From assembly GCA_029987235.1 (NCBI GenBank), contig DALTWF010000003.1, positions 2,641-66,640 of the forward strand: 64,000 nt of DNA, read 5' to 3'. Numbering within the stretch: the first letter of the stretch is position 1; each line of letters starts with the position of its first letter. Source of the stretch: Methanocorpusculum sp. Lineage in GTDB: Archaea > Halobacteriota > Methanomicrobia > Methanomicrobiales > Methanocorpusculaceae. Of the stretch, positions 21,137-55,925 are shown piece by piece. Below the pieces are notes generated by a model. It ran no database searches. It was not told the origin of the DNA and worked only from the letters and a program-made list of their open reading frames with translations. The position numbers were made by a program, and so were the translations under genes.

Positions 21137-21187
21137 TGCGAAGGAAGGGATTTGAACCCCAGAATCACTACTGAACTAGCCCCTGAA
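21137..21187 (-). pseudogene. 3' half of host tRNA-Leu(CAG), split by the provirus (left att site)
   Basis: Minus strand TTCAGGG-GCTAG-TTCAGTAGTGATTC-TGGGG-TTCAAAT-CCCTT-CCTTCGC-A; its acceptor and anticodon stems pair with the half at 55885-55925. Confidence 0.93.
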
Positions 21188-21237
21188 TATACTGCTGTCC
21201 AACGGCATTATATACCACGCACCACCAATATAAGTGT

Positions 21238-22389
21238 ATGACATCTTCGGCAAACATAGATGACTATCCAAAGCTTCTCAACCCTGCCCTAATCCGCGGC
21301 GTATCTGAAAAAAACGCCACTCTCCTGCGCCGTTTCATAGACCGCCAGCGATTGAACGGAGTTAGCCTGAACGCAATAAACACCGGAGTGCACCGCCTCT
21401 CGTCCTGGATACGGACAATAGGAAAAGACGACGCCCTCGAATGGACCATAGAAGACATAGAATCCGCCTACCTGCATAAATCCGACGAAACGTCACGAGG
21501 ATATCGTAGCAATACCACATTAGACGGCGAACTGCGAATATTAAAACAGTTCTGGCACTTCCTGAACCCCGATAAACCACCGGTTACCATCCGCCGCAAA
21601 CCCACCAAACTCAGCATCGCCAACAGCGACATCGCCAGCACGGAACAAATCCTGCAGATGCGTGACGCCGCAGAACGAGCCGGAGACATCCGCGGCGCCG
21701 CCATGATAATGGCCCTTCTTGGCACCGGCTGCCGCGTATCAGAACTCCTCGACGCAAATATAAAGGATTTGACAATCGGCCGCCAATTTGCGATTATTTC
21801 AGTCGATGGAAAAACAGGCCAGAGAAAAGTCCCATTTGTAACTGGCCTCCCCGAACTTCAGCGCTGGGTCAATATGCATCCCGTAAGGTTGCCAGACGGA
21901 ACCGTTGATCCACAAGCCCCGCTTTTTGTAACCTACCAATCCCGAGGCCACACAACCGACCGCCTGAGCAAACGCCGCGCTGACTATATCATGGACAAAT
22001 ACAAAAAGGCAGCCGGAATCCCTGACCACGTCAAAGCTCACCCGCATGCACTCCGGCACCGGGGCGCGACCGAAGACGCCAGGAACCTGACCCAGAAAGA
22101 ACTCTGCCTCAAATATGGCTGGAGCGGCTACAGCGACATGCCGAAACGCTACACCCACACCGACCAGGCCCAACTCGAACGAACCATCCTCGAAGCTGCC
22201 GGCATCCGCCTGCCGCAGGAACCACCGAAAACAAAAACCGTTACCCAGTGCCCCCGCTGCGGAGCGGTAAACCGCGCCGGCGCCATGTTCTGCGACGTCT
22301 GCAGCCTGCCGCTGAATAGAGACTTTGAGATTGACCTCATCAAGACGAAACAAACAATAAGAACAATCGCAGACGATAAACAGGATTAG
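21238..22389 (+). CDS. int: tyrosine integrase with C-terminal zinc ribbon
   Basis: TGCRVSEL, KTG, HPHALRH, YGW, RYTH catalytic set; CPRC/CDVC; TTATATA at 21208-21214 suggests a leaderless promoter. Confidence 0.95.
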   Translation: MTSSANIDDYPKLLNPALIRGVSEKNATLLRRFIDRQRLNGVSLNAINTGVHRLSSWIRTIGKDDALEWTIEDIESAYLHKSDETSRGYRSNTTLDGELRILKQFWHFLNPDKPPVTIRRKPTKLSIANSDIASTEQILQMRDAAERAGDIRGAAMIMALLGTGCRVSELLDANIKDLTIGRQFAIISVDGKTGQRKVPFVTGLPELQRWVNMHPVRLPDGTVDPQAPLFVTYQSRGHTTDRLSKRRADYIMDKYKKAAGIPDHVKAHPHALRHRGATEDARNLTQKELCLKYGWSGYSDMPKRYTHTDQAQLERTILEAAGIRLPQEPPKTKTVTQCPRCGAVNRAGAMFCDVCSLPLNRDFEIDLIKTKQTIRTIADDKQD

Positions 22390-22489
22390 GTTAACATCAC
22401 AAACCTTCATTAACATATGACTTACACTCAGGACAGCCCCACCGCAGTACCGTATGAGTATGCCCAATCCTATTTAACCGAAGATAACG

Positions 22490-22782
22490 CATACTGTTAT
22501 GGCGTTTCCCGTATGGCATCACGGGGGCGCTGTGAAAACAGTATGAATATACATCTAAGATTTACCCTCAACTTGAAACTTACCACTTCAAGCTGTTGTA
22601 ACGTACCGCAGTCGGCTATGATGATATTTTGGGACTTACTCCCAATTATCATTTCCCCGCTGCGTGCGGGCAAACTGTTTTATAGTCGGCTCGCTAATAT
22701 GTTATTGTAAACTCTTAGATTAAGTTCTGAATTGTTTTCACGCGGGTTTTCGGCGGCGGGCTTGGTAACCCGTCATCACCGC
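22490..22782 (+). ncRNA. putative structured ncRNA unit 1
   Basis: Stems 22490-22498/22537-22545 with inner 22499-22512/22521-22533 (several G-U); 22553-22565/22707-22720 enclosing hairpins at 22572-22592, 22621-22652 and 22656-22670; GC hairpin ~22742-22782. Confidence 0.55.
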
Positions 22783-22793
22783 ATTTAAGTACC

Positions 22794-22824
22794 GTTACTT
22801 CCCTATTTTGACATCCTGTTTCGC
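22794..22824 (+). repeat. 31-bp direct repeat, copy 1
   Basis: GTTACTTCCCTATTTTGACATCCTGTTTCGC, identical to 23234-23264. Confidence 0.97.
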
Positions 22825-22948
22825 ATCCGCGCACACCCTCATCACATTATGCAGAATATCAATATCTTCTTATACTCAATGATGTAACCTATAATTACCT
22901 CTGATTTAATCGGATAAATCAGGGGGAGGGACATACCCAATGTTCTTT

Positions 22949-23228
22949 ACAATCATATCAACTATAAGCACAGTAATCTCTGCTGTGTTATTACTTCTTG
23001 ATTTTATCGAGAAGCGGAAACGAAACTAAAACACGGATAGGGGTGAGACCGGTGCTCACCCCCACCGGTATTGTCACAGGCAACTTTTTTAAGTCATTAA
23101 ACCAATAGTAATATACCCTATACCATGTTTTAGGTCTAGAGGTGTGTTCTACTTTCGTTTCGATAGTAGATATGATTGTTCGCACAGGTGTTGTCCGGCG
23201 TGGGAACCGGACACCCAGACACCTGTGT
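22949..23228 (+). ncRNA. putative structured ncRNA unit 2
   Basis: 17-bp closing stem 22949-22965/23163-23179 (1 mismatch); hairpins 22967-22989 and 22994-23014; stem 23017-23034/23144-23161; hairpin 23040-23062; compound hairpin 23182-23228. Confidence 0.6.
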
Positions 23229-23233
23229 CGCAG

Positions 23234-23264
23234 GTTACTTCCCTATTTTGACATCCTGTTTCGC
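23234..23264 (+). repeat. 31-bp direct repeat, copy 2
   Basis: Identical to 22794-22824; 24/31 match to 23687-23717. Confidence 0.97.
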
Positions 23265-23266
23265 TA

Positions 23267-23686
23267 TCATAACCCCTCATTTACATACGTCTTGCATTCT
23301 GGACAGTTCCACCGCTCCGACGTTACACCCTCATAACTCATCTGTACGAGTCTGTGCCGGTTCATCCAGCAGTTCGTGCAGTAGCGCGTATCTCCGTGTC
23401 CTTTTACGAGGATATAAGGGTATTTTTCATTGTAGATTATGTCGCATTCGTGAACCTCAAGCTCTTCTGCTTTTACGCGCAACTGTTTATGCAGTTCTTC
23501 AATTTCATCATAAAGCCTGTTCCGCTCAAGTTTTAACTGTAAAACTTCTTCCGCTAACTTCATACTATCCTGCATCTGCCGGAATGCTGCGTCGCTCAAA
23601 TCCATACATAATTTTTTGAACTCCAACTCCTTAAATGCAACGCTGGAATCAAGTATTTTGGCGGCAATTTCCATCAGGTTAGACAT
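23267..23686 (-). CDS. coiled-coil plus zinc-ribbon protein (accessory gene downstream of the repressor)
   Basis: 139 aa; CTNC...CPEC; starts 1 nt after the repressor stop. Confidence 0.75.
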   Translation of the reverse strand: MSNLMEIAAKILDSSVAFKELEFKKLCMDLSDAAFRQMQDSMKLAEEVLQLKLERNRLYDEIEELHKQLRVKAEELEVHECDIIYNEKYPYILVKGHGDTRYCTNCWMNRHRLVQMSYEGVTSERWNCPECKTYVNEGL

Positions 23687-23687
23687 T

Positions 23688-24002
23688 TTACTTCCCTACT
23701 TTTACACTCTGCCTCGCTCCTTTTCCCGTGTTCACCTGCGACACCGCCGTCCCCGCGTTCTTTACCTCCTCCCGCGCAATTGCGCGCATCATTTCCACCA
23801 TGGCGGCCGGAATTTCACCATCAGCGCCGCACGGATGCGCGCGGGATTCGCGCTCGAGCTTCTCTGCAATCGCGCGCCGTAAGTATTCTGTTGTAGATAT
23901 ATTTTGTAAATCTGCCGCAGAATCAAGCTCTTTTTTCATTGTTTCGCTTACTCTGAAATTAATGGGTATTATACACGGTTCTCCAATTACTCGTTTTGAC
24001 AT
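23688..24002 (-). CDS. ribbon-helix-helix regulator, putative lysogeny repressor
   Basis: INFRVSETMKKELDSAA...STTEYLRRAI RHH pattern; divergent from the early operon. Confidence 0.75.
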   Translation of the reverse strand: MSKRVIGEPCIIPINFRVSETMKKELDSAADLQNISTTEYLRRAIAEKLERESRAHPCGADGEIPAAMVEMMRAIAREEVKNAGTAVSQVNTGKGARQSVKVGK

Positions 24003-24063
24003 ACTATCATTATGATATTAAAACGAATACTTTTATATGTTATGCCACCATAATGATAGTATG
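24000..24063. promoter_or_regulatory. divergent promoter with perfect 15-bp inverted repeats (putative operators)
   Basis: CATACTATCATTATG (24000-24014) and CATAATGATAGTATG (24049-24063), each including a start codon; TTTTATAT at 24031-24038. Confidence 0.8.
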
Positions 24064-45996: not shown

Positions 45997-47865
45997 ATGA
46001 CCGCAGAAACCGACGCAGGGTCAATAGTTATAAAAATAATCGCTGATACTTCAAAACTTGAGAAAGGAACCACATCTGCGAAAAAGGAGCTGCAGAAATT
46101 TAGTCAGGCAACTAAAGATGCCAGAACCAGCACCAACGGACTCCAGGAACAGATGGACCTGACCGGACAGGCAGCCACCGGTTCATCCCGCAGCATAGAC
46201 ACCCTCACTCAGGCAACCGAAGAAACAGCCGACGCAGCAGACACCGCTCAGATATCTCAGGAAGCGCTGGTCGCTGCACTTGCAAAGCTTGTCGACGAAG
46301 CAAGACAGGCAGGAACACAGACATCCAACGCAGGCGACCAGATAGAAAAAGCTGGCACGCAGGCAGAAAACACAGCCGGAAAAATGGACAAGATGAGAGG
46401 AGCTGCAAGAGAACTGAAAGCAGCCCTCGGCACAATCGGTCTGCTCGCAGTTTTGAAGAAAACAATTGATTATCTCGCCCAACTTGAAGATTCAAGCCGG
46501 AAAACATATCAAAACTTCGCCACGATGTCGCAAAACATCGAGAAAGCGACAACCAATTATAACACATTCAACAGCGCCACCAGAAACCTTGTCGGGGAAG
46601 ACGAAACACAGGAAGGAAATGCTGGTTATTATGTGAATAAGTATTTTGGATATGATACATTCACGAAAGGGTCCGCAGGATATAACATAGGCCAGGCCGC
46701 AATTAATGCAGCACAGACAACCGGGGTCGACGTAGTAACCATCTTATCCAAAACCGCAGAAATAATGGACAAGTATAACCGTGAGAGAGGAACCGAGACA
46801 CAAGTCCTCACGCAACTGCTGCAAATAGCAGACACCATGAACTCGCCGGACGCTTTCTCCGATTTGCTGACCGCATCCACCACTTATGACAAGTTATGGT
46901 ATGGAGAGAAGGGAATCGGTTTATCATACGAACAGATGCTCGCCGTTTTTCAGGCTTGGGGGAAAGACTGGAAGAGTGCCACAGAGGAGTCTGCAGTATG
47001 GCAGAAGGAACTGCAGGACATGCAGAACCAGATCGCCGAAGCTGTAGAAACCCTGCCGGAGATAAGAGGAGATCTGGCAGACGCGCAAAAAGAGAGTGAA
47101 GCACTCCTCGCCGAAAGAAAGGATCTCATCGCCGAAAAAGAAAAACGAACTGCAGAAGGGAAAGACACCGCAAGCATCGTCAAAGAGATCGCAAAAATAG
47201 ATGAAACCATCAAAGAATACGATTCTGAAATCAAAGACCTCAAACTGCAGATACAAGAGATGGAGCTCACAGCCACCCAGAAGCCCGGAGACCTTCTCAA
47301 AGAACTGATAACTGATGCAGGAGTCCTGACCGATGCCGAACTGTACACAAAGTTAAATGTCAAAGATAAGGATGAGTTTATCGAGTCCATAGAAAACCTG
47401 AAGACAATCGATGTAGAGAACTTGCCGGAGGGAGTAGAGACCGCAGTCCTGACACAAACCAGCCTTCTGCAGGACATCGGGGGCTGGATGCAGGATATCA
47501 GCGGAACAATCAAGGCTGCATACTTCTCCCCGGAGAACATCCAGGCTTACAGAACCGAAATATCATCGAAACTCGGCAATATTAACCCTTATGTGCAGGA
47601 AAAAACAAACCCCGCGGCAACCGTCGCAGCATACGGTCAACTTTTGCAGGAATATGAAGATCTGACAAAATCCCGGGACTACGCATATAACGAAACAAAG
47701 TGGGCAGAACTGCTCGCAAAGGTTGACAGATACCTGACACCAGGAGACACCACCAACAACATCTCCGTTTACATCGAAACCCCGCAGCTTGACACCTACG
47801 CAGCACAGAAGACTGCAGAAGCAATCGCAGCACAACAGTCGAAAACCAAAGCAGGAGCATATTAA
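45997..47865 (+). CDS. tape measure protein
   Basis: GSIVIKIIADTSKL N-terminus; long helical Ala/Glu/Thr-rich sequence; position. Confidence 0.85.
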   Translation: MTAETDAGSIVIKIIADTSKLEKGTTSAKKELQKFSQATKDARTSTNGLQEQMDLTGQAATGSSRSIDTLTQATEETADAADTAQISQEALVAALAKLVDEARQAGTQTSNAGDQIEKAGTQAENTAGKMDKMRGAARELKAALGTIGLLAVLKKTIDYLAQLEDSSRKTYQNFATMSQNIEKATTNYNTFNSATRNLVGEDETQEGNAGYYVNKYFGYDTFTKGSAGYNIGQAAINAAQTTGVDVVTILSKTAEIMDKYNRERGTETQVLTQLLQIADTMNSPDAFSDLLTASTTYDKLWYGEKGIGLSYEQMLAVFQAWGKDWKSATEESAVWQKELQDMQNQIAEAVETLPEIRGDLADAQKESEALLAERKDLIAEKEKRTAEGKDTASIVKEIAKIDETIKEYDSEIKDLKLQIQEMELTATQKPGDLLKELITDAGVLTDAELYTKLNVKDKDEFIESIENLKTIDVENLPEGVETAVLTQTSLLQDIGGWMQDISGTIKAAYFSPENIQAYRTEISSKLGNINPYVQEKTNPAATVAAYGQLLQEYEDLTKSRDYAYNETKWAELLAKVDRYLTPGDTTNNISVYIETPQLDTYAAQKTAEAIAAQQSKTKAGAY

Positions 47866-49499
47866 TGACAATCAAAACACAAATCGCAGGGTCACCGCAG
47901 ACCACCACACTGACTGCGTTCACCCTTGGCACCAGCACGACATTAAAAATAAGCAATGTCGCAGCCGTCCCGACACTGGGCAGCCCCAACAGTTCCACGA
48001 ACTACATCACCATAGTGAATGGAACCGGACAGGACGCACCGTTTGCTACGCTTGAATACACAGCAATCAACACCGCACAGCAACAGCTCACCATAAGCAG
48101 AGTCGTCGAGACAAACGCACAGAACGGATATGATTTCCCGACAGGATCAACCGCATTCAGACCATACTGCGCCGCAGACTGCAGCGACATCGCCGCAGAA
48201 ATCGCCGCAAAAGTGGCGGGAGTACAGAACGGAAACGGAGACAGCCTCGTCTCAGGAGGCACAGCCACCATCCCGACCGCAACAAACAACACGCTCGGCA
48301 TGGTAAAGATTGGGTCCGGCATAAACATAAACAACGGAGAAATCTCCGTCACAGGAAGCTCGACGCAGATATATGCTTTCACCATCGGAAGCGGGGCAAG
48401 CACCGACGCCATCACATACTCCGAAGCAGCAGCCAACCTTACCGAAGCGCAGCGCCGGGCCGTAGTAAGGTCACTCGCACATCACGCAATAGTAAACAAC
48501 GGTCAAATCGTAAACTGGCTTTATAACGATAACCTCGGATATACAGCCACAGATTACACAGGAACCGTCAGCACCGGGAACGCAAGCGACCTCACAGGCG
48601 CCGCAGGAGACGTTATGCTGCTCTACGAACCAATCTGGTGGACAGTTAGCCATGTGAACGACGGAAACACCACAATCCGCTTCTCTACGTACAAGTTCAG
48701 TCCGGACGCAGTGACCGCACATCAGTATGGAACCACAATATGCAGCTGGCTCGGCCTCGGTGTTTTTGAAGGGATAATCTCAAGCAGCGCCCTGCGTTCA
48801 ATGAACTCATCAGCGAAACCAACCGCCAGCATCACCAACGACGCAGCATATACTGCCGCAGTATATGGAAGGACAAACGGACACTATAACCAGATGCTCC
48901 CGATGACCTGGACGCTCTACGCAATCCTGCTTTTATTCGAAGGAGGAGACAGAAACACCCAGGCAAAGTGGGGTGCAGGATATACAAAGAGCACAAACAC
49001 CGCAAGCACCAACGTCAACTCCGACTGGTCCGCAGCAGCACCCTGGTGCCATGCGACACCGTACACCGACGGAGTCCACGGAGTCACCGCAGGAGGCATC
49101 CAAAATATGTGGGGCAACGTCTGGATATTTTTAGGAGAGTTCTGGAAAGGAACCAACAACGTCGCACACTTCACCATCACCGGAGGAAGCGACCACGCCA
49201 TGATTTCAACATCCCCGGCATACAGCGGAAGCTGCCAGATGACAGGGGTTAGCGCCGCATACATCAAAGACATAATCGGAAGCGACACAGTCCCGTTCTT
49301 ACCCAGAACAACAGGAGCAGCCGAAACAACATACTGGGCAGACTACTGTTACTCCAACACGACACAGTCAAACTGCGGTATCGTCGGCGGCTACTGGAAT
49401 TATGCCGCGCTTGCGGGCTTGTTCCTTGTGCATGTGTATTACGCGCTCGACCATTCCAATGCGGATCTCGGCGCGCGCCTCCAGATATTGATCGAATAA
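47865..49499 (+). CDS. DGR target: tail fibre/adhesin with C-terminal CLec-fold variable domain
   Basis: ATNNTLGMVKIG fibre motif, GIQNMWGNVW, GGYW...AGLF...GARL end containing the VR. Confidence 0.88.
   Translation: MTIKTQIAGSPQTTTLTAFTLGTSTTLKISNVAAVPTLGSPNSSTNYITIVNGTGQDAPFATLEYTAINTAQQQLTISRVVETNAQNGYDFPTGSTAFRPYCAADCSDIAAEIAAKVAGVQNGNGDSLVSGGTATIPTATNNTLGMVKIGSGININNGEISVTGSSTQIYAFTIGSGASTDAITYSEAAANLTEAQRRAVVRSLAHHAIVNNGQIVNWLYNDNLGYTATDYTGTVSTGNASDLTGAAGDVMLLYEPIWWTVSHVNDGNTTIRFSTYKFSPDAVTAHQYGTTICSWLGLGVFEGIISSSALRSMNSSAKPTASITNDAAYTAAVYGRTNGHYNQMLPMTWTLYAILLLFEGGDRNTQAKWGAGYTKSTNTASTNVNSDWSAAAPWCHATPYTDGVHGVTAGGIQNMWGNVWIFLGEFWKGTNNVAHFTITGGSDHAMISTSPAYSGSCQMTGVSAAYIKDIIGSDTVPFLPRTTGAAETTYWADYCYSNTTQSNCGIVGGYWNYAALAGLFLVHVYYALDHSNADLGARLQILIE
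49374..49478 (+). repeat. DGR variable repeat (VR)
   Basis: 105-nt ungapped match to TR; 13 of 16 mismatches are at TR adenines. Confidence 0.95.
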
Positions 49500-49537
49500 C
49501 AGACACCCCTTTTTTACGGGGGGCATTTTGATATTCA

Positions 49538-49642
49538 AGCAGTATCGTCGGCGGCTACTGGAATTATGCCGCGGGTGCGGGCTTGTTCAATGTGAATGTG
49601 AATAACACGCTCAGCAATTCCAATACGAATATCGGCGCGCGC
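49538..49642 (+). ncRNA. DGR template repeat (TR)
   Basis: 25 adenines, none at third codon positions in the VR frame; AAT/AAC-rich; between target and RT. Confidence 0.95.
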
Positions 49643-49751
49643 CAGCAAAGGATCTAAAAATCAAAATGCGCAAATGCCCCCCTGCCCCTTGGCAAAAATA
49701 CGACCAAAAAAAACAGGGAGCAACCAAAGCTCCCCAATCCTTTGGAGAATT

Positions 49752-50858
49752 ATGGACGACAAAACAGAACTATATAAACAGGTAATCACGACCGACAACG
49801 TCGCGAATTACGGCACAGCTTTTATGGCGCACGTAAACGCAAAACGAGGCAAAAGAAGTTACACACAAGTGCAGGAGTTCGAAGAAAACCTGCGAGACAA
49901 CCTGCACGAACTCATCGACGAAATACAGGCCGGAACTTACCGGACAGGAGATTACATCGTCGAGACCATAAACGATGGAAAGAAACCCCGAATAATAGCA
50001 AAGGTGCCGTATAAAGATAGAGTAGTTCAATGGATGCTCGCGATTTGGTACCAACCCTATTACCTCGAGCTTTTGTCCGACAACACACACGCAGCCATCC
50101 CCGGGAGAGGAATTCACTCCGCGCTCCGACAGGCAGAAGACTACATCCGCAAGGACGGAAACACCTGGGTGCTCAAACTCGACATAAGAAAATACTTCCC
50201 CCACATACACAGAGCGACCCTGCTCGAAATGATAAGGGAGGATATAGAGGACGATAATCTTTTTGAAGTAATCAAGAATATAATCCTCGACGCCCCGGAC
50301 AGCATAGTCGACGACGAAGGAACCGCAGCGCAAGACGGCATCCCGATAAGTAATTACTGGAGCCAGTTTATGGCCAACCGCTATATGGTCGAGTTCACAC
50401 GCTGGATGGAGACCAACGGTTACACGTTCTGCCAGTACATGGACGACATAGTCGTTTTTTCCAAAGATAAAGAACAGCTCAGGCGCGCTAAATTTGAGAT
50501 AGAGTGGTATATGGAACGGAATTTATCTTTGTCACTAAAGGCAAACTGGCAAATATTCAGACCCGCAGACCGCGGTCTGGATTTCGTAGGATATCGGATA
50601 TTCCCGGACAAAACAATCATAAGGAAAGACATTTACCTCAAGATGACCCGCTCACTCCGGGCAATAGCCAAGAAGATATCGGCAGAAAAGACAAAGGAGC
50701 TCACAGAGTCGCAGCGCTGCACCGTAATGTCGTATCTGGGCTGGGTTTGCCATTGTACATCGGAAACAAGGCGATTTATATATTTTAAGTACTTCGCCCC
50801 GATATTAAGCCAAACACACACACCACTTTCACACAAGTTAACAGAGTACTTCAAATGA
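49752..50858 (+). CDS. DGR reverse transcriptase
   Basis: KDRVVQ, GRGIH, LKLDIRKYF, GIPISNYWSQ, YMDD, GLDFVGY; start after GGAGA RBS. Confidence 0.95.
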   Translation: MDDKTELYKQVITTDNVANYGTAFMAHVNAKRGKRSYTQVQEFEENLRDNLHELIDEIQAGTYRTGDYIVETINDGKKPRIIAKVPYKDRVVQWMLAIWYQPYYLELLSDNTHAAIPGRGIHSALRQAEDYIRKDGNTWVLKLDIRKYFPHIHRATLLEMIREDIEDDNLFEVIKNIILDAPDSIVDDEGTAAQDGIPISNYWSQFMANRYMVEFTRWMETNGYTFCQYMDDIVVFSKDKEQLRRAKFEIEWYMERNLSLSLKANWQIFRPADRGLDFVGYRIFPDKTIIRKDIYLKMTRSLRAIAKKISAEKTKELTESQRCTVMSYLGWVCHCTSETRRFIYFKYFAPILSQTHTPLSHKLTEYFK

Positions 50859-55698: not shown

Positions 55699-55744
55699 CC
55701 TGCAGACGGAGAGGGAAACCACTCCGATTTTTTAAAACAGAAAG

Positions 55745-55826
55745 TGGGAGAGACGGGAGTCGAACCCGCGAACAACTAATGACATGGCCCTGAACCATGC
55801 GCCTTTAACCTCTCGGCAACCCTCCC
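55745..55826 (-). tRNA. virus-encoded intact tRNA-Leu(CAG), 82 nt
   Basis: GGGAGGG-TT-GCC GAGAGGTTAAA GGC-G-CATGG TTCAGGG CCATG-TCATTAGTTGTTC-GCGGG TTCGACT CCCGT-CTCTCCC-A forms a full type II cloverleaf. Confidence 0.95.
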
Positions 55827-55884
55827 AAATATCGCCAATTTGACCGTATTTTTACCAAATATCACGCCGTATGGAGTGTTTATA

Positions 55885-55925
55885 CCCTGAAGCTAGCGCC
55901 GTTGGCCAGGCTTGGCTACCTTCGC
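55885..55925 (-). pseudogene. 5' half of host tRNA-Leu(CAG) (right att site)
   Basis: GCGAAGG-TA-GCCAAGCCTGGCCAACGGC-G-CTAGC-TTCAGGG, then unrelated viral sequence TATAAACAC. Confidence 0.93.

Follow-up and report, generated by a model that had tools for sequence, protein, structure and literature searches.

What are the two heavily folded units that lie side by side between an integrase gene and a presumed repressor gene in a provirus of the methanogenic gut archaeon Methanocorpusculum? An initial annotation of the window, by which we mean the whole 64,000-nt stretch of contig DALTWF010000003.1 analyzed here, described them as a modular array of non-coding RNAs, each unit followed by an identical 31-nt repeat. 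Our analysis points to small proteins and to RNAs that would control them. We judge, with barely more than even confidence, that the units are type I toxin-antitoxin-like modules in which a putative antitoxin RNA, transcribed from the same strand, would be nested within the mRNA of a putative toxin.

Setting of the units in a provirus

Both units are carried by a provirus of ~34.6 kb, sited between its tyrosine integrase and a ribbon-helix-helix gene (Table 1) whose product is the presumed repressor because of its position. A 139-aa orphan ORF with a coiled coil and two CxxC pairs is coupled to the repressor gene and fills the third interval of the array; its sole match in the protein collection is its own record. 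Next to the integrase lies a 50-nt remnant of a second allele of this ORF, with 16 codons in which 13 of 15 residues are the same and the changes fall mostly at third positions. The carrier genome is 81% complete. Searches through the integrase, the Bro-N protein and the 139-aa gene found no close relative of the provirus. Of four Bro-N matches, the one examined, L047, proved to be an unrelated P2-like phage. In the provirus that comes nearest, G040 (integrase 42%), repressor and integrase are 175 nt apart, with no cassette between them.

The provirus has integrated at a 7-nt core, TTCAGGG, in an anticodon loop, and the halves of the host tRNA-Leu(CAG) stand at its two ends. A whole viral tRNA-Leu(CAG) of different sequence lies ~60 nt inside the right end (halves and whole copy at 21137-21188, 55744-55826 and ~55883-55925, all on the minus strand); it has no promoter of its own by the tRNA-trained model and is therefore probably read from the host promoter. 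A diversity-generating retroelement occupies 47865-50858 (reverse transcriptase 49674-50858, template ~49539-49643, variable repeat ~49375-49479). Its variable repeat lies in the end of a 544-aa probable tail protein and is 85.7% alike to the template, with differences mostly at template adenines. Positions 24000-24063, between divergent ribbon-helix-helix genes, form a strong imperfect palindrome (folding z ~-8 on both strands) that probably represents the operators of a lysis-lysogeny switch. The 3' end of the integrase (22368-22386) and the end of repeat copy 1 (22813-22831) make a 19-nt inverted pair at 79%, which may be chance.

Table 1. Features of the two units and their flanks, in window coordinates
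Feature	Position	Strand	Basis
Tyrosine integrase of the provirus, left flank	21238..22389	+	Pfam Phage_integrase, E 7e-15
Remnant of a second 139-aa gene allele (3' end)	22396..22445	-	78% to 23266-23315; codon table
Unit 1 upstream promoter (predicted), start ~22501	22464..22501	+	score 5.4, top 0.03% of genome positions
Unit 1 mRNA 5' hairpin, ending at Shine-Dalgarno-like GTGA	22501..22531	+	fold
Unit 1 small ORF, 55 aa, ATG 22543; putative toxin	22543..22710	+	
Unit 1 internal promoter (predicted), inside ORF end, start ~22707	22670..22707	+	score 7.9; shuffle p 0.0015
Unit 1 small RNA (predicted), 3' hairpin 22742-22782	22707..22810	+	cofold
Repeat copy 1, coding end of a repressor allele with its stop (AKQDVKIGK-stop)	22794..22824	-	
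Unit 2 upstream promoter (predicted), start ~22887-22889	22852..22889	+	score 5.8; single sequence
Unit 2 5' hairpin	22898-22925	+	fold
Unit 2 hairpin holding GGAGG and start codon together	22926-22948	+	fold
Unit 2 small ORF, 29 aa, ATG 22940, MFFTIISTISTVISAVLLLLDFIEKRKRN; putative membrane toxin	22940..23029	+	
Unit 2 internal promoter (predicted), top-scoring in the region, start ~23115	23078..23115	+	score 9.8; shuffle p 0.0015
Unit 2 small RNA (predicted), 3' hairpin 23182-23228	23115..23250	+	
Repeat copy 2, identical to copy 1; the copies bracket the 440-bp unit-2 cassette	23234..23264	-	
139-aa orphan ORF, coupled to the repressor gene	23267..23686	-	
Third repeat copy, 77%: live repressor 3' end and junction to next start codon	23687..23717	-	
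Ribbon-helix-helix protein, presumed repressor, right flank	23688..24002	-	Pfam RHH_1 above cut-off

Predicted RNA folds with reading frames

The long stems and the 3' GC-rich hairpins are present at the places given in the initial annotation, and folding of the plus strand beats every shuffle (z -3.73 for unit 1, -7.69 for unit 2). The plus-strand bias claimed with them is weak, as the minus strand reaches z -2.46 and -7.56, respectively. G-U pairs are in modest excess on the plus strand of unit 1 (12/101, against 6/88 on the minus strand) and number 11/122 against 9/121 in unit 2. We agree that the unit bodies show no sequence likeness to each other and that a search of Rfam 15 returns no family, its three matches (E 1-6) all lying far below the gathering score.

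The region had also been said to hold no convincing ORF. Each unit has a plus-strand ORF, and its start region is buried in the very stems that had been described. The non-coding reading had named beforehand the finding that would count against it, a conserved coding frame in homologues, and unit 1 has such a frame. The array thus stands as an RNA-level, plus-strand, modular and undescribed arrangement, and falls as a wholly non-coding one: the folds appear to be those of small-protein mRNAs, with one non-coding RNA of ~100-135 nt predicted inside each unit.

Consensus folding of nine unit-1 homologues keeps only the 5' and core hairpins, with 18 pairs, four of which show change on both sides; an earlier consensus from four sequences had 15 of 58 pairs with two-sided change. 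The 5' hairpin has eight consensus pairs over the nine homologues, two with changes on both sides. The pairing arms are too divergent to align, and the long stem gave no covariation count.

A small-protein family in Methanocorpusculum

The unit-1 peptide combines an alternating-hydrophobic N-terminus, a hydrophobic core, MMIFWDLLPIIIS, and a basic tail. DNA, profile and sequence-model searches place its family in 10 of 45 Methanocorpusculum genomes, our own included, and in none of nine genomes of the sister genus; 12 of the 54 genomes matched at E 0.01, and two of these were judged chance. The resulting set holds nine distinct sequences (L003 and L004 are 99% alike), and one metagenome contig repeats L005. 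Searches of the protein collection returned 13 hits of 60 candidates and then 16 of 1095 (own record included), and a word-free search added two members among 10 hits. Outside the genus, none of 356 genomes of the order and no viral contig gave a match. We rejected three matches among 400 at the level of the phylum, all off-frame inside other genes, together with candidates judged chance (L006, L014, L072, L073, L076, L078, P0016 and P0017) and L074, a reverse self-match.

In all nine distinct homologues the frame is open from a conserved ATG, over 52-79 aa. The window ORF is intact, and length differences amount to whole codons. Variable positions in the core number 10 of 14 at third codon positions against three first and two second, in a core picked for these counts after amino-acid conservation had been seen. 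Among the four non-window homologues then known, pS was 0.37-1.00 and pN 0.03-0.13. Constraint is weakest in the window copy (pN 0.23-0.25 against pS 0.19-0.73). The alternating hydrophobic N-terminus is kept among homologues despite DNA changes, and in L045 two paired third positions have changed together, with both residues and the hairpin kept. The C-terminal part of the protein is read in different frames among homologues. On these comparative grounds we regard unit 1 as representing a real and new, so far undescribed family that appears to code for a small protein.

The unit-1 peptide is moderately hydrophobic (19-residue mean 1.30-2.12; LdrA control 1.66) and has charged residues in its core. 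A structure model gives one long helix of poor quality (pLDDT 55), and a clear Shine-Dalgarno-like motif is present in ~6 of the nine homologues. Pfam, NCBIfam and PHROGs hold no family for the peptide, a PDB sequence search gave E 0.19 or worse, and Atlas structure hits were uninformative. We set aside a hydrophobic frame on the minus strand of unit 1: among the four homologues found first, it is open in three but stopped in L005.

Half of the eight non-window homologues lie beside tRNA genes; L068, L070 and L071 lie among ordinary genes, with no mobile-element sign within 1.5 kb. The copy at L075 (~1447-1640, G014:C14) has lost the ribosome site and the ORF and has kept both promoter sites and the small-RNA part, a sequence pattern that looks as an orphan antitoxin would. 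L075 stands in an island like that of L005, and G014 also has an intact unit-1 copy of another type. Short repeated hairpin elements occur in L003 and L004 (~2010-2200, after tRNA-Leu) and in the left part of L005 and L023, in the island around L005. L007 holds two CRISPR-like repeats around one spacer (~245-325), ~150 nt upstream of its unit-1 homologue, and G000:C11 a long AT-rich region (~750-1130), which contains short tandem motifs as well as several palindromes and may be a replication origin or the end of an element.

Anatomy of unit 2

The unit-2 peptide has one hydrophobic stretch (Kyte-Doolittle 19-residue mean 2.34; LdrA control 1.66) and a basic KRKRN end. A small hydrophobic peptide with a basic C-terminus is the textbook shape of a type I toxin (PMC8309996, PMC6563280), and by this analogy unit 2, with its 29 aa, has that shape. 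Unlike unit 1, its predicted internal start lies 86 nt after the stop codon, and the start-blocking arm begins 48 nt into the predicted RNA. No protein homologue was found in 53 genomes, and Atlas hits were all under 0.9. Short DNA matches in 14 of 400 (E 0.002-0.007) were discarded, the six examined being in ordinary genes, as were two weak sequence-model matches among the 53 genomes, both chance. Because unit 2 has no homologue, its reading rests on the anatomy of a single sequence.

Two predicted promoters in each unit

Promoters were predicted with a 38-column model trained only on host tRNA genes (34 of 43 upstream regions), which replaced a first, 14-column model that had mixed two elements. 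The four best distinct plus-strand sites of 22380-23300 are the four predicted promoters of Table 1, so that each unit has one before its ORF and one at or after the ORF end. In L003, L005, L007 and L045 the two predicted promoters likewise rank first and second on the plus strand. The internal promoter of unit 1 is found in 9/9 homologues, with scores of 3.4-19.6. Four later, more distant homologues score 12.1, 14.8, 19.6 and 16.4, within the range of tRNA promoters, with the proviso that the search model that found them already contained promoter columns.

In eight of the nine unit-1 homologues (not in L071) the 5' hairpin has the predicted upstream start at its base, and the stop codon ends at most 7 nt from the predicted internal start in seven of them. 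When the best duplex with the start-codon region is defined without reference to promoters, its first paired base lies at most 4 nt from the internal start in eight homologues and 9 nt away in the ninth. This register is kept over ATG-to-internal-start distances of 163-229 nt, with site shuffle p values of 0.0005-0.0135; the homologues share ancestry and are not independent, and we therefore give no joint p value. In a genome control, 9 of 73 comparable non-homologous candidates came within 4 nt, and 5 of 73 did so with an equally strong duplex. Homologues translate the conserved DNA motif close to the ORF end in differing frames, so its conservation is at the nucleotide level.

The best minus-strand site scores below the internal plus-strand site in 10/10 units. 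No minus-strand promoter shared among the units was found with the tRNA-trained model, by which weak promoters could be missed; L007, L068 and L070 have minus-strand sites scoring 4.2-5.9. Taken by itself, an architecture of two promoters and a small protein seems to us quite probable. Comparison bears out the coding frame of unit 1, its fold, the two promoter-like sites and their register with the blocking arm.

Predicted locking and pairing

The first 35 nt of the predicted unit-1 small RNA are complementary to -10..+23 around the start codon. In unit 2 the predicted RNA pairs through 23144-23161 with 23017-23034 and through 23163-23179 with 22949-22965, the last and first codons. The start region is predicted to cost more to open in the full-length than in the nascent mRNA in 10/10 units (17.0 vs 4.4 kcal/mol in window unit 1); locking is slight in L005 and L069, and the minimum-energy fold of L069 lacks the long stem.

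The predicted small RNAs would bind their own nascent mRNAs at -12.8 to -19.1 kcal/mol, against a non-cognate mean of -5.4. In 8 of 10 rows the cognate RNA has the strongest predicted binding, and a non-cognate one is stronger in the other two. For the window unit-1 arm its own start region is the best in the row (-19.1 kcal/mol), and the window RNA is also predicted to bind L070 mRNA at -15.4 kcal/mol. This cognate diagonal arises because of complementarity in cis, and so speaks of divergence in specificity and is no proof of action in trans. By raw duplex energy the units could not be told from background, and in a genome screen for arm-to-start pairing unit 1 ranked first and unit 2 only 8th of 51.

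Two features of type I systems can be recognized here. Each unit has a small ORF, conserved in frame in unit 1 and preceded by a ribosome site in the single sequence of unit 2, and an mRNA fold that hides the start is predicted. The hydrophobic, membrane-spanning helix and charged C-terminus of such toxins suit unit 2, whereas unit 1 is borderline. A separate small RNA that would pair with the toxin mRNA is a prediction from promoter and complementarity, in 9/9 unit-1 homologues and in unit 2. The usual layout, with the antitoxin on the opposite strand, was not found with the tRNA-trained model, which could miss weak promoters.

We propose a mechanism in which we infer transcription of both RNAs, translation, action in trans, toxicity, the trigger and all of unit 2 beyond its anatomy. 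The upstream promoter would yield an mRNA of ~310-360 nt for a small hydrophobic protein, silent when complete, its 3' part folding back over the start-codon region. From the internal promoter at the ORF end, on the same strand, would come a small RNA of ~100-135 nt that begins with the same blocking arm and, for that reason, could shut nascent or 3'-trimmed mRNA in trans. Should this RNA run down, upon loss of the element or when transcription is shut off in infection, open mRNA would be translated, and the peptide would arrest or kill the cell, so that the provirus is stabilized or superinfection aborted. The self-locked mRNA might be activated by coupled translation in an initial round that precedes synthesis of the arm, or by 3' trimming, which activates aapA mRNA (PMC6733600).

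The two peptide families are unrelated, and if both use this design next to each other, a broader class may have been overlooked, one that could be found by architecture and not by sequence. We offer this extension tentatively, as a possibility that may well not hold.

Alternative readings of the architecture

The same RNA architecture could serve a protein that is no toxin, either a small regulator or a superinfection-exclusion factor tuned by the small RNA. The comparative evidence fits such a protein equally well, the unit-1 peptide is moderately hydrophobic, and three copies lie among housekeeping genes. Methanosarcina mazei, moreover, has pairs of small-protein RNAs and antisense RNAs in which a membrane peptide aids growth under salt stress (10.1101/2025.10.28.685009). 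What makes us regard a non-toxic protein as unlikely is the double lock, by a cis arm and a trans RNA, together with diverged specificity and a copy that has shed its ORF and kept its RNA, all as toxicity would select; the patchy spread and the stacking of two unrelated modules in one provirus weigh on the same side.

The internal promoter carries the distinction between our preferred reading and an mRNA that merely locks itself, in which the internal motif would be an RNA element or inactive and the antitoxin a weak opposite-strand RNA or one encoded elsewhere, as in hok/Sok and aapA/IsoA. A long-distance lock between 5' and 3' ends is a known cis device (PMC6733600, PMC8594479), the motif sits in a hairpin loop in L003, L005 and L007, and weak antisense promoters can escape a model whose training set was strong tRNA promoters; L007, L068 and L070 have minus-strand sites (4.2-5.9). 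Those sites have no common place, however, and in the window and in L045 the motif lies outside that hairpin. It varies in the way TATA boxes do, is accompanied by a second AT-rich element and keeps a fixed spacing to the arm in 9/9 homologues, with scores up to 19.6. We consider self-locking without the nested RNA distinctly unlikely.

Small RNAs might instead be the useful product, as decoys or antitoxins against related modules in the host or in rival elements, with the ORFs of the provirus as decaying passengers. In both window units the internal promoter outscores the upstream one, no other ORF is as relaxed as that of the window, an ORF-less copy exists, and the predicted hold of the window RNA on L070 mRNA (-15.4 kcal/mol) would suit such a role. 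The window ORF is nevertheless intact, its arm matches its own start best in the row, and the 81%-complete genome holds no second target copy; we think this very unlikely.

Repeats and the history of the cassettes

The repeat reported in two identical copies is confirmed (none expected by chance, 100 shuffles); a third, 77% copy at 23687-23717 and the 50-nt remnant at 22396-22445 had been overlooked. Read on the minus strand, both identical copies are ten codons ending in a stop, and 24 of their 31 bases match the repressor's own end. Spacing is cassette-like, at 440 and 453, with inserts of 409 and 422 nt. The repeat had been taken as part of each unit, which is not borne out: it corresponds to the last ten codons of the repressor gene and is missing from 11/11 homologous loci checked, with at least 12 mismatches of 31 anywhere. 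The 81%-complete genome has only three occurrences and, by a crude scan, no repeat (CRISPR) array; viral contigs and metagenomes gave no match. At two mismatches, 3 of 53 other family genomes match, against six for the reversed control, which is chance level, and two of the three are ordinary stop/ribosome-site junctions.

The repeats would accordingly be recombination scars, copies of the repressor 3' end left by incoming cassettes of related viruses. In the simplest history, related viruses would have had modules placed tail to tail with their repressor, and recombination at the end of that gene would have stacked them. Flanked by two perfect copies, unit 2 could still be lost as a 440-bp loop. 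The plus strand of the repeat is rich in pyrimidines, and the repeat may for that reason serve as a terminator; other homologues get a pyrimidine tract from unrelated sequence.

In CreTA systems the flanking repeats resemble the host CRISPR repeat and the inserts are spacer-sized. Here the inserts span 409 and 422 nt, the repeat is a gene end, and the crude scan of the 81%-complete genome saw no array, so we rejected a CRISPR array or CreTA. The broader idea of a purely non-coding RNA array processed at the 31-nt repeats, CRISPR-like or CRISPR-regulated toxin-antitoxin forms included, draws on the strong folds, the identical repeats and a unit-2 ORF known from a single sequence. Set against the conserved unit-1 frame and a repeat that is absent from all 11 homologous loci, coincides with the repressor 3' end, occurs only three times in the genome and matches elsewhere at chance level, we find it highly improbable.

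Integron cassettes end in an attC hairpin with a GTTRRRY core that travels with the cassette. The repeat here begins GTTACTT and homologous units lack it, and we rejected an integron cassette array. A retron-like layout of unit 2 had been raised, too, as speculation; no retron reverse transcriptase stands beside the units, and the sole reverse transcriptase identified in the provirus, 26 kb away, belongs to the diversity-generating retroelement, which has a template and a variable repeat of its own. Elements acting as DNA (retron msr-msd, integron-like cassettes or miniature transposons) are scarcely credible despite the adjoining integrase and the cassette-like spacing of 440 and 453, given that reverse transcriptase, one copy of each unit per genome here, homologues without the repeat, and strand-specific promoters and ORF.

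Discussion

We claim no described family for either unit; the comparisons with published systems draw on the available portions of the papers cited. The Sok antitoxin of hok comes from the opposite strand. Likeness to aapA/IsoA and hok/Sok extends to a small hydrophobic ORF, a long-distance 5'-3' stem that silences the full-length mRNA, a 5' hairpin beside the ribosome site and an expected activation by 3' trimming (PMC6733600, PMC8594479). The IsoA3 antitoxin of aapA is encoded on the opposite strand, whereas the antitoxin predicted here would be same-strand, nested in the 3' end of the mRNA and identical to the cis lock. We found no sequence relation to either system, and the host is an archaeon.

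Unit 1 recalls the Fst/Ldr toxins, through a short stretch in which L and P come after MIFW (5 of 11 aligned residues in LdrA) and through a basic tail. We rejected membership: the profile probability is only 14-23% over 8-11 columns, and the glycine of PxxxG is missing (S, F or Y). Unit 1 also has an extra N-terminal part of 25-40 aa compared with LdrA, and the Ldr antitoxin, Rdl, is on the opposite strand.

The type I modules of Clostridioides difficile and Bacillus subtilis prophages have convergent antitoxins on the opposite strand. Modules of this kind (CD0956.2-RCd10 class, txpA-RatA, bsrG-SR4) occur several per prophage, with prophage stabilization proposed, and their toxins join a hydrophobic N-part to a lysine-rich C-terminus, like unit 2 (PMC6563280). 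Searches of Pfam, NCBIfam and PHROGs gave no sequence match to them.

The C4 RNA of phage P1 and the CI RNA of P4 pair on the same strand. The P1 c4-icd-ant operon and P4 CI RNA resemble the units in that a small ORF that inhibits growth is repressed by a small RNA from its own operon (PMC8198154). The target of C4, an antirepressor control, is downstream of it; the units have no Rfam match, and no unit has a controlled downstream gene. In RalR/RalA of the rac prophage, the antitoxin RNA gene is downstream of the toxin and pairs via a separate complementary stretch, as here, although RalA is encoded opposite to its toxin, RalR, which is a DNase (PMC4041452).

The closest archaeal parallels are spRNA23/asRNA93 and spRNA24/asRNA94 of M. 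mazei, each a small-protein RNA with a regulatory RNA, sP24 being a membrane peptide; overproduction of those proteins improved growth, however, and the partners are called antisense RNAs (10.1101/2025.10.28.685009). Searches of the order and the phylum gave no sequence match to the unit-1 profile outside Methanocorpusculum. A 2025 paper puts type I systems on record only from Proteobacteria, Firmicutes and Tenericutes, to which it adds its own cyanobacterial case (PMC12390103). A 2010 survey held that their apparent absence from archaea may reflect search methods (PMC2887945), and the available portions of PMC8594479 do not mention archaea. In the accessible literature we found no description of an archaeal type I system or of a same-strand internal antitoxin promoter, which supplementary tables or subscription papers could hold. 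The locus most likely carries a toxin-antitoxin device of a kind so far described only in bacteria, with predicted RNAs and a putative toxicity.

The locus provides two concrete candidates that are cheap to test: their start sites are predicted to the base, a mutant lacking the ORF exists in nature, and a specificity matrix is at hand. If our reading is true, a methanogen and its virus would be bound by addiction to an RNA antitoxin, and the same-strand, nested layout of that antitoxin would be one that opposite-strand searches miss. The peptides would then be small proteins acting on the archaeal membrane, and the modules would be of interest as tools for plasmid maintenance in methanogens.
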